Shown: in pieces, positions 58,366-63,586 of the stretch
Layout: each line of letters begins with the position of its first letter
Numbering within the stretch: the first letter of the stretch is position 1
NCBI GenBank assembly: GCA_963716175.1
Contig: OY970296.1
Coordinates: forward strand, 1,824,001-1,888,000
Direction of reading: 5' to 3'
From: an uncultured Armatimonadetes bacterium
Lineage (GTDB): Bacteria; Armatimonadota; Hebobacteria; Hebobacterales; Hebobacteraceae
DNA: 64,000 nt
Position numbers and translations under genes: made by a program
Notes under the pieces: generated by a model
What the model was told of the DNA's origin: nothing
What the model saw: the letters and a program-made list of their open reading frames with translations, nothing else
Database searches by the model: none

Positions 58366-60000
58366 CTACTTCGCGGGCACGAGTACCGGGTTGCCCAGGT
58401 AGAGGGTGATGTCCTCCGTCGGCGCGTTGAACCACAGCCGCCAGTGGCGGACCTGGCCCACGTTGGTGACGATGCTCGCTTCGTCGAGGGGAAGGCGCAG
58501 GAGGACCGGCGTACCCGGCGGCACCGGAATGTAGAGTCGCTCCCACGCGTAGCCGTCCTCGCCAGCCAGATCGGCCGCCAGGGGCACCGTATGGTCCATC
58601 GGGTTATAGAGCGGCTGCTCCAGGTAGCGGTACTTCGACCAGTCTGTGGTCGCCAGCAGCTTGCCATCGATCATCACCCACGGCCACTCATCGCTGTTCT
58701 TGTCGGCCCGATCGAACCGGGAGACGTGCATCTCGATCGCATAGCGCTGTCCATCGATCTCGTGCGGTTGCCGCACGATGCGACCGGCGGGATGTTCCTT
58801 GCTCAGCGCCTCTAGGAGTGCCGCGTTCGCGTAATCGAACACTACCAGGCCCCGGGAGGGCCTTGCCTTGGCCCCCAGGAGGACGCGGTTCCACTCGGTC
58901 CTCCGGAAGGTGGGCCGACCGGGTTTGAGGGCGCCCTCGCGCATCTTCCGGTAGACCTCGCCCAGTGCCGCGCACGCCGCGGGAGAAGCGTCGAAGCCTT
59001 GGGGCACTCCGCTCTCGCCCTCCCAGTGGTAGATGAAGGGCATCAAGCCGGCCGCCCCCTGCTCCAGGTAAGCAAGGCACTCCTCCCGCACCTGCTCGGG
59101 CGTGGTCATGACATCCCACGTGCCCGTCTGCTCCCGGAACATCTGCGGCATGCCGATCAACCCAATGCCGGGCTGCTGCGCGTTCGCCAGCTGCATGATG
59201 TAGGTCAACTGCCGGCGGGTGTTCTGATCCAGCGTCCCGTGATGGTAGGGGTAGAGATACACGCCCAGGGCGTCGCAGATGCCGGGCGAGAAGTTCTCCA
59301 TGGCCGATGCTCCCCCGACGCCCATCACGATCACGTGGTGGTACGGGCTGCCGTCTGCCTTCCGGTCATTGGCCCGGATCACACGCGCCATCTCCTTCAG
59401 AGAGTCGCCCTCGAACGGACGGGCGTCGTCTACGAGCCAGAAGCCCCACAGGTTCGGCGAGTCCTTCACGGCCAGAATGTCCTGCTTCAGGCCTTCGGAG
59501 TTGCACAGGAGCAACCCCGCGCTATGCGGCGCCGGCTTGGTGCCGTCCGCACCCCGCGTGCATCCGGTGAAGGCGTCGGCGGTCCGACCCGTGTAGGTGA
59601 TATGCTCCCCCTCGATCACCAGCGTGCCGGAGGGCGGGAACGACGCCCCCTCTCCCCTGGTGTCGGCGGCCACCGCGATCGTGTTTTCCTGCGGCGCGAG
59701 CTCCTTGGCCAGGCGCAAGCCCACAAAGCGGCTGGAGAGATTGTACATCACCTTCATCTGGTGGTCCGCGATCGCCTTGCCCATAGGGCTGGCCGGATCC
59801 AGCTGTTGCCGGCCGCGATCAGCGCTGTAAGTGTAGATGAGCGTCGCCCCGAGCTTGGCGAGCTCCGTGATTTGCTCGGGCGTCTCAACCCCGAAGGCCC
59901 CCAGCGGCGGACGCCCGTACACGCTCAGGTCCACGGCCCTGGCCTGTGCTCCGTATCCACAGAGCCACACAAGGCTCAAGCAGACGATGGCTTTCGGCAT
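58366..60000 (-). CDS. Secreted hypothetical GH-like TIM-barrel protein
   Basis: Signal peptide after SD; KDSPNLWGFWLVDD, YLYP, GAAGL. Confidence 0.6.
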   Translation of the reverse strand: MPKAIVCLSLVWLCGYGAQARAVDLSVYGRPPLGAFGVETPEQITELAKLGATLIYTYSADRGRQQLDPASPMGKAIADHQMKVMYNLSSRFVGLRLAKELAPQENTIAVAADTRGEGASFPPSGTLVIEGEHITYTGRTADAFTGCTRGADGTKPAPHSAGLLLCNSEGLKQDILAVKDSPNLWGFWLVDDARPFEGDSLKEMARVIRANDRKADGSPYHHVIVMGVGGASAMENFSPGICDALGVYLYPYHHGTLDQNTRRQLTYIMQLANAQQPGIGLIGMPQMFREQTGTWDVMTTPEQVREECLAYLEQGAAGLMPFIYHWEGESGVPQGFDASPAACAALGEVYRKMREGALKPGRPTFRRTEWNRVLLGAKARPSRGLVVFDYANAALLEALSKEHPAGRIVRQPHEIDGQRYAIEMHVSRFDRADKNSDEWPWVMIDGKLLATTDWSKYRYLEQPLYNPMDHTVPLAADLAGEDGYAWERLYIPVPPGTPVLLRLPLDEASIVTNVGQVRHWRLWFNAPTEDITLYLGNPVLVPAK

Positions 60001-60169
60001 GGTTCCGGCCTTCCTTGGCTCGCGGCCGCGGGCCTTCCAGTGCCAAGCAGCACTGGAGGTTCCCGTCCCGCGCCCGATATCCCTCTGCGCCCGCGGTCGC
60101 TCGGCAGCTTCCTCCTGCGGCGAGCCGAAAGCGCTCGCCACGAGCATCGCGGCCTAGTCTGTTAGTCGG

Positions 60170-60579
60170 CGCTATAGAAGCGGCGTCAAGTCCTCGTCAG
60201 TGGCCTTCCTTCCTCACGTCACAGGCGTTCTCCGCGAGCCACAAGGGCGGAGTGCCCCTTTGCGTGACGGAGCCCGCCGTGGCTCGCCCAGGATTTGTGC
60301 GCGGCTGGTTTCTCGCGAGTTCGCTATCGGCGCTCTAGGGCGCACACTGTCGTCGCGGATGGGGAGCCTCCCAGTTCGCTATAGAAGCGGCGTCAAGTCC
60401 TCATCAGTGCCTTCTTTCCTCACGTCACATGCGTTCTCCGCGAGCCGCAAGGGCGGAACCCCCGCTGTGGTGGAGCCCGCCGTGGCTCGCCCAGGATCTG
60501 TGCGCGGCTGGTTTCTCGCGAGTTCGCTATCGGCGCTCCGGGGCGCATGCTATCGTCGCGGATGGGGAGCCTCCCAGTT
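60170..60579. repeat. Two tandem diverged units (60170..60376, 207 bp; 60377..60579, 203 bp)
   Basis: Manual alignment: long identical blocks, scattered substitutions and one variable loop. Confidence 0.95.
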
Positions 60580-60656
60580 CATCGAGAGCCGTCTGCGCGG
60601 CTAGCCGATTGAGGGGGAGTGCTCCCGCCAAGGGTGCGAGCTCCAGCCGCTCGCGA
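60170..60656 (-). ncRNA. Putative bridge RNA/seekRNA region downstream of transposase
   Basis: Long non-coding right end with stems and internal loops; contains ATAGCGAACT identical to the reconstructed donor junction. Confidence 0.6.
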
Positions 60657-61699
60657 TCAAACCGTGACCTGCACGTGCTCCTCCGGTGCCAGTTCCCGCC
60701 ACGGCTGCCCGGTGCGCAAGAGATGGTAGATCAGATGCGTGGCCTTTCGCGCCACGGCCATCTTGGCGCCATTGCGATGCCCCCGCAGCTGGATCCGCCA
60801 GTAGCGCTGATGCAGGCGACTGCCCTTGCCCTGGCAGGCCATCCGGTTCGCCAGCAGGCCCAGTGCGTACCGCAGCCAGGGATTGCCCCGGTGTCCCAAG
60901 GGCCCATAGCGGCAGTGCTCTCCGCTCTGGAAGACGCGTGGTGCCAGGCCGGCATAGGAGATCAATGCCGCCGAACTGGGGAAGCGTCGAATGTCGCCGA
61001 TCTCGGCTCGCACCGCCAACGCGGTGAAGGGCCCTACCGAGGGCATCGTGCGCAACTGCGCGCAAACCGCGTCACGCTCGGCCTCTTCCTTGATCGCCAC
61101 CTCCAGCTCCGCCTCGATCTCCTGCGCCTTCTCCAGCATCTCTCGCCACAGCTCCAGCACCCGCGCCGAATGTCCCGGCAACTGCGCGGCGTCCAAGTGG
61201 TCCTTCCCCCGCTTCGAGAGCAGGCTCTTGGACTCGACCTCCCCCCAGCACCGCAACAACGATCCGATCTCGTTCACCAGCTTCGTCACCCACCGGGTCG
61301 CTCGCACCTTGCCCCGCACCAATACCCGCAGATCCTGGGTATGCTCGTCCGGTACATAGATCCCCTTGATCTCTTCCCGATACAGCTTCTGCGCCATGCG
61401 CAGGGCATCTCATCTCGCCGATCCGTCTTCGCACTACGATCCCGCTTGCGATCCCACAACTGCGCCGGGTCCGCGATCACCAGGCGGGCGAAGTAGGGCT
61501 TCAGCACGCGATACATGGACCAGGCATTGGTTCCCGTCTCCATCACCCCGTGCAAAGGGCCGGGCAGCTCCCCGAGCACGACGGCCATCACCTCCGGCTC
61601 ATTGCTGATGCGCGCACGCTCCACGATCTCGCCGGTCTCGGGATCGAAGCCCCGGAGCGTGGTCCACTGGCTGTGCACATCCAATCCCACATAGAGCAT
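60657..61699 (-). pseudogene. IS110-family transposase frameshifted by 5-bp duplication at 61406..61415
   Basis: YVGLDVH, METG, KTDRRD; then LRTMPSVGP, EIGDIRRF, YAGLAP..QSG, AVARK. Confidence 0.9.
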
Positions 61700-61930
61700 C
61701 TCTGGCTTGTCCTCCTCTGAGGCTATCGGTCAGGCCTCTGATTCGGCACCGCGAGGGCAAGCCGCTTCTATGATAGTTCGTGCAATGATGACCCGCTTAG
61801 GGAGGTGATCGCCGTCGACCACTGACCCACCCTCGAACAGTCGAAACCTGGTCTCCTGGTCGTGCAGGGACACCATCCTAGCGTTCTGACCATTGCTCGG
61901 GGTGGGTCAACCCACGGCGCCGATGGCAGG

Positions 61931-63586
61931 TCAGTTCGCGGTGCCGGCCCACAAAACTGTTCCCTCACGTATCGGCAGCAGGACGTGGGAGGCGTGGGCC
62001 GGGTCCATGTAGATGGTATTGTGGGCGACCCGGGGCGAGACGAAGCGGGGGTAGCCTATCCCGGAGTTCGCGTTGGCGGCATAGCCGGGGTAGCTGCTCG
62101 AGGTCACGTGAAGCCGTATCCGATGCCCGGTGTTGAAGACGATACTGGTTGACCAGAGGTCAAGGTCCAGGAGGTAAGGGCGGCCCGGCTCTACTGACGC
62201 CTCCTTCGACAGCGACTCACGCAACCGGAGCCTGGTGCCTCCCTCACAGATGTTGATGGAGCGTCCGTCCGGGTAGACATCGCACAGCCTGGCGATGAAG
62301 TCGGTGTCCGGCGCGTCGGTGGAGGCCCAGAGTTTCACTCGCACCCGTCCTGTCACCTCCACAGGGCGGTCCAGGGGGTCAGTGGTGAACACGAGCACAT
62401 CCGCGCGAGATTCGATGGGACGCTGGTCCCGCGGTCCGGCCGGCAGGTCATACTGGTAGCCACCAGTAGTCGGCACGGGACGGTGCGGGTCGTACGGGTA
62501 GGCGAGGGCTGTACCTTTCCTATCGCGTTTGGGTTCCAGCGTTCGATCACAATGCAGGTAGAGCCGAGTGGCCGACCTCGGGAAGGGAGGCCAGCTCTCT
62601 GCAGTGCGCCAGCGATTGCCGGGGGCTTTCGGGTCGGTCGCGTCACCCATGACATAGTAGTTCACAGGCGCAAGATCGGCGTCGGAGGTCAAGCCCTTCA
62701 GGCGGGCGCCGAACCAGGCCCAAGCATCCGCGGCACTGGCGGGTGGCTCGTCGGCGTGCGGGAAGGGCCACTTGCTAGCGAAGTCGGGGTATGACACATG
62801 GTCAGTCCCAGGCCCCATCACCAACCTCTGGGCTCGGCGTGCATGCGGCCCCCCATGTTCCTGCATGCCTAAGAAGCCATCAATCGTGCCCTGGGAGAAG
62901 ACATCATACCACCCTCCTGAGTGCAGCGCTGGCACATCCATTTGGCCATAGCGCAGCGCGGCACTGCGTTGCTGCCAGTAACTGTCGTACGTGGGATGGG
63001 ACATCCAGATCTCCAGCGCGCCCGGGTCGAAGATTTCCTCCTGCAGCCATCCCTCGACAAGCGCCTTGCGAAACAGACCGTTCGTGTAGGCGAATGTGTA
63101 GAGGTCGGGGGTCGCGACACCGATGTTTAGCGCGGCCAACCTCCGGGTTCCGGTCCCTGCTGCGAGGAACTGAGCGATCCCCATGGCGGAACCAGCATGC
63201 ATGCCGATCTTGCCATTGCACCAGGGCTGCGCAGCTATCCACTCGAGCGTGTCGTAGCCGTCCTGGTGGCCCCACCAGCCGTCACCTTCGAAGGGGAGGT
63301 TCTCTCCTTCTGAGGCGAAGCGGCCGCGGGTATTCTGGACGACAAACGCATAAACGTCGGCCGCGCGGTGGCGGGCCAAGTTGCTGTAGATGTCTTTGTC
63401 GTAAGGAGTGCGCATGAGGATCACCGGAGCTGGATTGCCTTCAGCAGGCAGGTAGACGTCAGTGGCGAGCCGCACCCCGTCGCGCATGGGCACCAGGAAG
63501 GTCTGCTTGCTCTGCTCCGTGGCAACCGAGCCTAACGCCGGGGTCAGCAGGAGCACCACTATTGCGCAGGTGAGTCTGACTCTCAC
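61931..63586 (-). CDS. Secreted CocE/NonD family hydrolase
   Basis: VPMRDGVRLATDVYLP, RTPY, RGRFASEG, DGYDTLEWI, GGWYD, GHRIRL..SSSYP. Confidence 0.88.
   Translation of the reverse strand: MRVRLTCAIVVLLLTPALGSVATEQSKQTFLVPMRDGVRLATDVYLPAEGNPAPVILMRTPYDKDIYSNLARHRAADVYAFVVQNTRGRFASEGENLPFEGDGWWGHQDGYDTLEWIAAQPWCNGKIGMHAGSAMGIAQFLAAGTGTRRLAALNIGVATPDLYTFAYTNGLFRKALVEGWLQEEIFDPGALEIWMSHPTYDSYWQQRSAALRYGQMDVPALHSGGWYDVFSQGTIDGFLGMQEHGGPHARRAQRLVMGPGTDHVSYPDFASKWPFPHADEPPASAADAWAWFGARLKGLTSDADLAPVNYYVMGDATDPKAPGNRWRTAESWPPFPRSATRLYLHCDRTLEPKRDRKGTALAYPYDPHRPVPTTGGYQYDLPAGPRDQRPIESRADVLVFTTDPLDRPVEVTGRVRVKLWASTDAPDTDFIARLCDVYPDGRSINICEGGTRLRLRESLSKEASVEPGRPYLLDLDLWSTSIVFNTGHRIRLHVTSSSYPGYAANANSGIGYPRFVSPRVAHNTIYMDPAHASHVLLPIREGTVLWAGTAN

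Follow-up and report, generated by a model that had tools for sequence, protein, structure and literature searches.

The stretch of DNA analysed here (the window, 64,000 nt, G000:C1:1824001-1888000) belongs to a single-contig genome of 4.56 Mb with 66% G+C, and contains an IS1111-type element of the IS110 family whose right end is present twice in tandem. This raises the question of whether the second right-end unit is a second guide or a structure of another origin. The preliminary description had read the two units as a guide array offering one recombinase alternative RNAs or two alternative excision ends, possibly an intermediate between single bridge RNAs and arrayed systems. Comparison of the units with another copy of the element in the same genome, with metagenome relatives and with the predicted guide RNA suggests that the extra right-end module is probably a by-product of the element's own (half-site) recombination chemistry, and not a second guide.

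The element proper extends from 61779 to 60377 on the minus strand (61779→60377), with the outer unit as an extra, since a second copy in the genome (copy 2, C1:1969318-1970720, 1403 bp) shows 100% identity to this segment and stops at the inner end. Identity begins at 61779, and copy 2, which has a single unit, terminates exactly at the inner right end (query positions 22-1424) and lies between flanks unrelated to those of the window element. The subterminal inverted repeats are ATAGAAGCGGC (61771→61761), which begins 8 nt inward of the left end, and GCCGCTTCTAT (60391→60381), which is repeated at 60184→60174. Three left ends were seen, all of them identical. The non-coding stretch between the transposase stop and the inner end has 280 nt, versus 80 nt 5′ of the ATG. 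Joining of the two ends would form a predicted circle-junction promoter consisting of TTGACG, 17 nt and TATCAT; a promoter and terminator scan of the linear sequence from 60000 to 61950 gave zero promoters and zero terminators.

The transposase gene, from the ATG at 61699 to the stop at 60659→60657, reads as two open reading frames (61699→61286 and 61397→60657). Its N-terminal piece matches PF01548 with 20.4 bits, below the cut-off, and its C-terminal piece matches PF02371 with 77.3 bits. The GAGAT duplication that shifts the frame is present in both genome copies, that of the window and copy 2. Two metagenome relatives with 88% DNA identity, L013 and L016, are intact: they do not have the 5 nt and encode a 345-aa protein with both Pfam domains, and in the L013 open reading frame PF01548 and PF02371 are both above the cut-off. 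Among the metagenome runs, a contig variant of run X5 is without the 5-nt GAGAT and a contig of run X1 has it. The genome contains 11 PF02371 matches, which correspond to IS110-family loci.

An IS1111 transposase is taken here as a protein of about 330-350 aa with an N-terminal DEDD/RuvC-like PF01548 domain and a C-terminal PF02371 domain. The element shows both domains (through the intact relative), subterminal inverted repeats, a long 3′ non-coding region and site-specific insertion, and the earlier assignment to the IS1111 type, with a long non-coding region 3′ of the transposase, is borne out by the domains, the ends and the 280 versus 80 nt. It resembles ISEc11, ISPa11 and ISKpn4 of the IS1111 group (PMC11187229) in six features: a DEDD plus PF02371 transposase (345 aa in the intact relative), subterminal inverted repeats of 11 nt, a long non-coding region on the 3′ side of the transposase gene, a repeated palindrome-like target that is entered at a single position, the predicted junction promoter (TTGACG, 17 nt, TATCAT), and a predicted RNA in which the top-strand-complementary segment lies 5′ of the bottom-strand-complementary one. 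In IS1111 elements the seekRNA is located in the 3′ non-coding region, and its top-strand match is 5′ of its bottom-strand match (PMC11187229). Unlike those elements, the one described here has a second, truncated right-end module and a frameshifted transposase, and its RNA is predicted from the sequence. Features and coordinates are collected in Table 1.

Table 1. Features of the IS1111-type element, its tandem right-end units and its flanks (positions in the window).
Feature	Position	Strand	Basis or remark
Left half of REP-like target, sub-repeats GGGTGGGTCAGT… and GCGGGTCATCATTGCAC; abuts the left end of the element	61780..61832	-	Flanks of four left junctions; genome repeat family
Left end GAACTATC plus 11-nt subterminal inverted repeat ATAGAAGCGGC at 61771→61761	61761..61779	-	Start of identity with copy 2; same left end in L013 and L016
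IS110-family DEDD transposase gene, frame broken by 5-nt tandem duplication GAGAT (61416→61407)	60657..61699	-	Pfam and relatives
Unique 77 nt 3′ of the transposase stop, before the units	60580..60656	-	Holds most of the predicted target-binding loop
Inner unit, 203 nt: AACU, 3′ arm of target-loop helix, predicted donor-binding loop (60560→60517), 3′ hairpin, right end	60377..60579	-	Same sequence in copy 2 (100% identity)
Inner right end: TTGACG (-35-like), subterminal inverted repeat GCCGCTTCTAT, terminal AGCG	60377..60396	-	Copy 2 ends here
Novel junction …TATAGCG|AACTGGG…	60372..60381	-	Bridged by X1 contig record 2
Outer unit, 207 nt: predicted donor-binding loop, 3′ hairpin, full right end	60170..60376	-	89.9% identity to inner unit
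Right half of REP-like target, CCGACTAACAGAC; abuts the outer right end	60157..60169	-	Compare CCGATTGAC at other right ends

The layout given in the preliminary description, 77 unique nt followed by tandem units of 203 and 207 bp, agrees with these coordinates and with Tandem Repeats Finder, which reports one array (60170-60580, period 203, 2.0 copies, 90% matches). Both units terminate in TTGACG-CCGCTTCTAT-AGCG, so that each is a complete right end with its own inverted repeat, as had been described; the outer one has kept its TTGACG, its 11-nt inverted repeat and its terminal AGCG without change. The inner and outer units show 21 differing alignment columns, indels counted: three in the 5′ strand of the donor loop (CGATAGCAT vs CGACAGTGT), two in the apical loop of the donor loop, seven in the apical loop and four in the 3′ arm of the 3′ hairpin, and five in linkers. 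No difference touches the terminal inverted repeat, the tetramer AACU, the 3′ strand of the donor loop or any of the stems, 60 columns in all, which agrees with the earlier observation that stems are retained and differences lie in loops. The preliminary description had named substitutions random with respect to structure as part of an outcome that would tell against it; the differences are non-random, the chance that none of 21 lands in 60 of 207 columns being about 5e-4 to 8e-4. In the 3′ hairpin, an A·C of the inner unit corresponds to an A-U pair in the outer unit. The outer unit is nearest to the inner unit (89.9%) and shows 82.8% identity to L016, whereas the inner unit shows 89.3% to L016. 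For the altered donor-loop 5′ strand of the outer unit, no matching left end is present in the data (three left ends, all identical). The sparing of stems and guides fits divergence within an active lineage before arrival, and equally selection in place. Two of these observations run against the by-product reading: the sparing of the 60 structural columns fits selection on the outer unit too, and the compensated A-U pair of the 3′ hairpin is found only in the outer unit.

A two-loop bridge/seek RNA, with a target-binding and a donor-binding loop, is predicted from the 3′ non-coding region. The RNA alignment contains the 3′ non-coding regions of the window element, L013, L016, L015 and L005, and shows invariant blocks between short variable blocks. 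In the RNAalifold model, the target-loop closing helix pairs GGGAG-(CA)-CUCCC with GGGAG-G-CUCCC, and the loop shows a 5′ strand, CCUCAAUCGGCU, an inner stem-loop, AGCCG-CGCAGA-CGGCU, and a 3′ strand, CUCGAUGAACU. Four parts of this loop lie in the unique 77 nt: the 5′ helix arm GGGAG-CA-CUCCC, the right-target guide CCUCAAUCGGCU (60614→60603), the inner stem-loop and the left-target guide CUCGAUG (60586→60580). The second (donor) module contains, in order, CGCGA, CGAUAGCAU, GCGC-CCCGGA-GCGC, CGAUAGCGAAC and UCGCG. A search with the alignment (nhmmer) gave a distant homologue of exactly these two modules, IS-B (C1:2890631-2890520, E=1.6e-4), which lies in the same genome on the 3′ side of a different IS1111-type transposase gene. 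Once IS-B is included, the closing helix has 11 pairs, all of them paired in 5/5 sequences and two compensatory, and the inner stem gains one compensatory pair. The observed covariation is reached by four of 500 shuffles, and all of it comes from one distant sequence, IS-B. Support is weak for the stem that closes the donor loop: its pairing is 79% and 3/5 sequences break one pair, a point against the by-product reading. RNAalifold on the four close relatives shows no compensatory pairs because the stems are invariant, and single-sequence folding, no better than shuffles (z = -0.38 and -0.42), is uninformative since the DNA has 66% G+C. The Rfam search gave only a chance match (sR17, E=0.95, below the gathering score), and no curated family covers the RNA.

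The predicted guides were compared with the flanks of each element. The target-loop 5′ strand shows complementarity to the core and the right flank, and the complementary stretch includes the final base of the element. The right-target guide matches the right junction at 9/11 positions in each of L013 and L016, and over nine contiguous nt shifted by 2 nt in copy 2. In L016, both the target-loop 5′ strand and the right flank differ from those of the window element, and IS-B shows a match of seven contiguous nt. The target-loop 3′ strand has the sequence of the left flank and the core, and after it comes AACU, the first four bases of the left end. The left-target guide 7-mer matches the left flank at 5/7 positions in copy 2 and at 6/7 in each of L013 and L016, and cross-element pairs match at 3/7. 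In the predicted RNA, UCAAUCGGC, which is complementary to GCCGATTGA, would precede, on the 5′ side, CGAUG, the sequence of the left flank. The right end joined to the beginning of the left end gives the donor-loop 3′ strand AUAGCGAACU: in the inner unit, CGAUAGCGAAC corresponds to the right end ATAGCG plus the left-end start AAC, and in IS-B this strand tracks its own right end (ATAGG; AUAGG in RNA). In L005, AACT is changed to AATT in both loop 3′ strands together. The predicted guides and loops are laid out as the target loop plus donor loop of bridge RNAs, and the tetramer after the left-target guide appears to behave like the handshake guides described for IS621 (PMC13626964).

The insertion site of the window element is intergenic, with a peptidase-S15 gene and an open reading frame of 593 aa as its neighbours. 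Right ends of the clade (copy 2, L013, L014 and the X5 contig) adjoin CCGATTGAC-like sequence, and left ends come after GGGTCA-N9-G. The genome contains a repeat family, GGTGGGTCA-N9-G|CCGAYTGAC, often as doublets, with empty sites at C1:25643 and C1:2860784. A loose regular expression for the target repeat gave 106 matches in the genome versus 69 in the reversed genome, and the family is based on clearly alike members and not on this count. Copy 2, L013 and the window element sit at GGGTCA-N9-G|CCGAYTGAC, and L016 sits at a different target matched by its own guides. In the window the order is left flank GCGGGTCATCATTGCACG, element, outer unit and CCGACTAACAGAC, so that element and outer unit together, a composite bounded by the left end and the outer right end, fill the canonical position of one REP-like repeat. 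The left flank of the window element was also considered as a remnant of the target-loop region of an older copy, and this was rejected: it does not contain the conserved GGGAGCACUCCCC and CUAGCCGCGCAGACGGCU, and it aligns to the REP-like target (GGGTCA-N9-G).

A tandem guide array would contain at least two complete guide units, would recur among homologues and would yield processed RNAs of unit size; here the second unit is incomplete and the tandem is found once. The outer unit does not contain the right-target guide, the inner stem-loop, the left-target guide or the 5′ arm of the target-loop helix, and of the target loop it retains just the 3′ arm of the closing helix. Since it has neither guides nor 5′ helix arm, it cannot specify a target or encode a full guide. 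The proposal of a two-unit array with alternative RNAs is therefore not supported, because most of the target loop is in the unique 77 nt and the outer unit is without a full one; the transposase, moreover, is frameshifted in both genome copies. The array had also been proposed as an intermediate towards arrayed systems, a proposal against which stand the single locus and the one-unit state of the other 11 right ends (copy 2, L005, L009, L011-L017 and the X5 contig), none of which (0/11) is followed by a second unit. These 11 right ends correspond to nine distinct loci, with L011 merged with L005 and L017 with L009, and L012 has only the final 25 nt in common. The suggested search for copies with one, two or more units thus gave two units at the window locus only. 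In the same set, the truncated right-end relics L005 and L009 start at GAACT in 0/2 cases, an observation that runs against the by-product reading.

Among the 11 IS110-family loci of the genome, Tandem Repeats Finder shows a right-end tandem at the window locus only. In the whole genome, nhmmer gave just the three known copies and IS-B, and with the profile of the unit the three known copies only; no complete solo unit was found, which also runs against the by-product reading. None of the sequencing runs listed as carrying the sequence is an RNA run. When the non-coding region was compared by BLAST with 401 genomes of the phylum (E≤1e-5), only G000 and G005 gave matches, and a search of 61 relatives at E≤0.001 adds marginal matches of 23-59 nt in G014 and G020. 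A pattern scan of genome contigs gave only two contigs of G005, the nearest relative with the same element, labelled as an Armatimonadota MAG, and a search with the C-terminal open reading frame for related loci in genome contigs gave 104 pattern matches, none of them confirmed. Two alternative excision ends are possible given the two right ends; copy 2, with its single unit, shows the existence only of the form ending at the inner end. The background given in the preliminary description, a 3′ guide RNA in IS1111 elements and a relation between IS110 and TIGR-Tas, is upheld by PMC11187229 and PMC12045711. IS110 transposases are linked to TIGR-Tas by a related RNA-binding domain, and the bridge RNA has been likened to two fused tigRNAs (PMC12045711). 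Unlike TIGR arrays, which contain many complete, processed guide units (PMC12045711), the second unit here is not a complete guide. The TIGR link is real at the level of protein and RNA architecture, the window locus is not an array of guides, and it gives no evidence for a natural multi-guide array.

The origin of the outer unit is best approached from the boundary between the units. At the novel junction, the right end runs to its exact last base and passes directly into AACT, the four bases with which the left end begins, and the unit-end base and the base preceding the unit are both G. GAACT is found at only two sites in the 280-nt non-coding region, and the junction uses one of them. TATAGCG|AACT duplicates 11 nt of the predicted circle junction. 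In the predicted RNA, the repeat boundary cuts the target-loop 3′ strand between the left-target guide and the tetramer (CUCGAUG|AACU). The DNA for this strand (CGATG|AACT) duplicates the left junction of an inserted element and would act as a pseudo-junction, and the recombinase probably used this pseudo-junction in its own guide DNA together with the genuine right end. Three routes can be proposed, each of which would yield …TATAGCG|AACTGGG…: a new copy would nest into an older resident at the pseudo-site, the older body then being lost; a partial circle containing only the unit would re-integrate at the right junction; or, after an old in-situ duplication, gene conversion from copy 2 would have replaced the body, an event that would also account for the frameshift present in both copies. 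The right-target guide matches the flank of the outer end at 7/11 positions and the neighbour of the inner end at 4/11. The left flank of the window element matches the present left-target guide at only 3/7, so that one more event has to be assumed (an older resident copy, gene conversion or half-match insertion), which weighs against the by-product reading. The recombinase, and not the replication machinery, appears to have made the junction.

If the by-product reading holds, the locus would be a clean natural example of an RNA-guided recombinase acting on a pseudo-site in its own guide gene. It would also give a testable rule for the start of partial circles and tandem units in IS1111-type elements, and for bridge-recombinase engineers it would mean that guide-encoding DNA may be an off-target or rearrangement hotspot.

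Precedents for such modules are known in the IS110 family. In ISPpu9 of Pseudomonas putida, the transposase module and the downstream RNA module circularise each alone or both together; these circles account for its modular copies, and its module boundaries have the crossover dinucleotide in common (PMC12288879). Like ISPpu9 and its ssr9 module (PMC12288879), the window locus has a REP target with an inserted IS110-family element and, after the element, a non-coding module with its own ends, and module and element end have crossover nucleotides in common. Unlike it, where ssr9 is dispensable for transposition and has solo genome copies, here the module belongs to the guide-RNA region, no complete solo copy is found in the genome (nhmmer), and the left boundary is only a 4-5-nt match inside guide-coding DNA. 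A 2026 preprint describes tandem non-coding repeat units beside IS110 transposases (n=468) whose boundaries keep one donor arm, and also partial circles that reuse an element terminus (10.64898/2026.08.14.744561); recombination with a half match has been demonstrated for IS621 (10.64898/2026.08.31.748434). As in this local tandem expansion (10.64898/2026.08.14.744561, 10.64898/2026.08.31.748434), non-coding units pile up beside the transposase, and the junction TATAGCG|AACT has kept the right end in full, together with 4 nt from the other arm. The units differ from those of the survey (10.64898/2026.08.14.744561), whose threshold was at least 95% identity between units, in showing 89.9%. The main text of that preprint makes no mention of IS1111, and its passages on tandem units give no boundary at the position of a guide gene between left-target guide and handshake guide (10.64898/2026.08.14.744561); a limited literature search gave no paper placing a tandem boundary at a guide-coding site. 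The present case fits the ISPpu9 and IS110 precedents and adds a specific boundary placement in an IS1111-type element.

The by-product reading has to be weighed against a functional outer unit, which could be an alternative right end, a donor-loop-only RNA acting in trans (similar to a split bridge RNA) or a small non-autonomous module (similar to ssr9). The outer right end is intact (TTGACG, 11-nt inverted repeat, AGCG), none of the 21 differences falls in stems, donor-loop 3′ strand or inverted repeat, one pair of the 3′ hairpin is compensated, TATAGCG|AACT copies 11 nt of the predicted circle junction, and ISPpu9 modules can circularise alone (PMC12288879). However, the unit has no target-binding loop and no left inverted repeat, just 4 nt of the left end; the genome contains no complete solo unit, and the 11 other right ends no second tandem; the transposase is frameshifted in both copies; and the altered donor-loop 5′ strand matches none of the three (identical) left ends. 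In addition, the -10 position at the junction of inner and outer unit is TGGGAG, so the junction promoter would not be recreated. A function of the outer unit is on this balance unlikely. A broader form, in which the donor-loop/right-end module would be a separately mobilisable cassette moving through its built-in copy of the left junction, and the conserved outer unit would be used as an alternative end or as a donor loop in trans, is slightly more doubtful still. If it were true, IS lineages could swap such cassettes and stack them; single bridge RNAs could in this natural way gain further donor modules or alternative ends, perhaps as an initial step in the direction of arrays.

Less probable again is a recombinase-independent origin, in which replication slippage or unequal crossing-over would have duplicated the unit in tandem, with drift afterwards. 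Duplications with 0-1 nt of microhomology occur, and here a G is present both at the last base of the unit and before the unit. Against this, the breakpoints are the exact terminus and one of the two GAACT sites in 280 nt, a double coincidence that is unlikely; the two units are 10% apart, whereas copy 2 matches the element body at 100%; and the differences are non-random with respect to structure.

The preliminary description had asked whether the tandem could be an assembly artefact merging two strain variants of one right end, and the tandem was kept after comparison with Logan contigs. In run X1, record 1 (59957-60325) runs from the chromosomal flank into the outer unit with 0 differences, and record 2 (60306-60528, 223 nt) bridges the unit junction 60376/60377 with one difference and contains 71 outer-specific and 152 inner-specific bases across it. 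Run X1 is possibly the source sample of the genome, so that these contigs would represent a different assembler and not independent DNA. In runs X2, X5 and X6, parts of the stretch have no contig cover, and these gaps carry no weight as evidence. Although repeats readily mis-assemble and the single-contig genome is seemingly metagenomic, with related sequences in wetland and sediment metagenome runs, an artefact is hardly credible given both X1 records and record 8 of run X2, which comes from another study and contains the flank-to-outer-end junction with 0 differences.

The family of REP-like repeats is the insertion target of the IS1111-type element in the window. Its members show the pattern GGTGGGTCA-N9-G|CCGAYTGAC and frequently occur as doublets, with gaactgatytcgctaatccag upstream of the doublet. 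Target-like flanks are present at relics of the clade of this element, found in the related genome G005 (L005 and L009) and in metagenomes (L011 and L017). These relics are of two types: one contains the 3′ end of the transposase gene and the whole non-coding region, and the other consists of a 115-bp piece from the 3′ part of the right end, standing alone.

The second genome copy of the element shows the right junction TATAGCG-CG-CCGATTGAC (L002, G000:C1:1970720), which has an additional CG by comparison with the junction of the intact metagenome relative L013, TATAGCG-CCGATTGAC; because of this extra CG, the match to the right-target guide is shifted by 2 nt in the second copy. In the relative L015, the right flank (L015:140-160) is ACCATTAC, which matches the right-target guide of the L005-type element at 9/11 positions versus 6/11 for the guide of L015 itself. 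L015 is thereby the second example in which a right end is located at a target poorly matched by the element's own guide.

The transposase reading frame is broken in both genome copies by a 5-nt tandem duplication, GAGAT, which is absent from the intact metagenome relatives L013 and L016 and from the variant on the X5 sequencing-run contig. That the broken gene is identical in both copies suggests either that one was converted by the other or that a transposase no longer present mobilised the element in trans. The genome also contains a distant IS1111-type relative, IS-B (L020), with an apparently intact transposase gene and the inverted repeat ATAAGACGG/CCGTCTTAT. Its predicted two-loop RNA is homologous to that of the window element, and its guides fit its own flanks.

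Coordinates and strands of the features described
Feature	Location	Strand	Remark
IS-B	G000:C1:2890445-2891745	minus	
GAGAT duplication	window 61407-61416	minus	also in second copy (G000:C1)
REP-like repeat	G000:C1:25619-25680		
REP-like repeat	G000:C1:2860760-2860820		
REP-like repeat	G000:C1:4535683	minus	
REP-like repeat	G000:C1:51521	minus	
REP-like repeat	window ~63818	plus	further member
REP-like repeat	window ~61905	plus	further member
593-aa ORF	window 58366-60147	minus	directly downstream of outer right end

For the 593-aa ORF, the Pfam search gave no family at E≤0.001. The TTGACG of the outer right end faces outward, about 40 nt upstream of the listed ATG of this ORF. Elsewhere, a tandem repeat with a period of 57 nt (2.0 copies, 82% matches; G000:C1:2848765-2848878) is located just downstream of a separate IS110-family transposase domain match (C1:2849021-2849272, minus strand), and may be a further case in which a short stretch of 3′ non-coding sequence has been duplicated.
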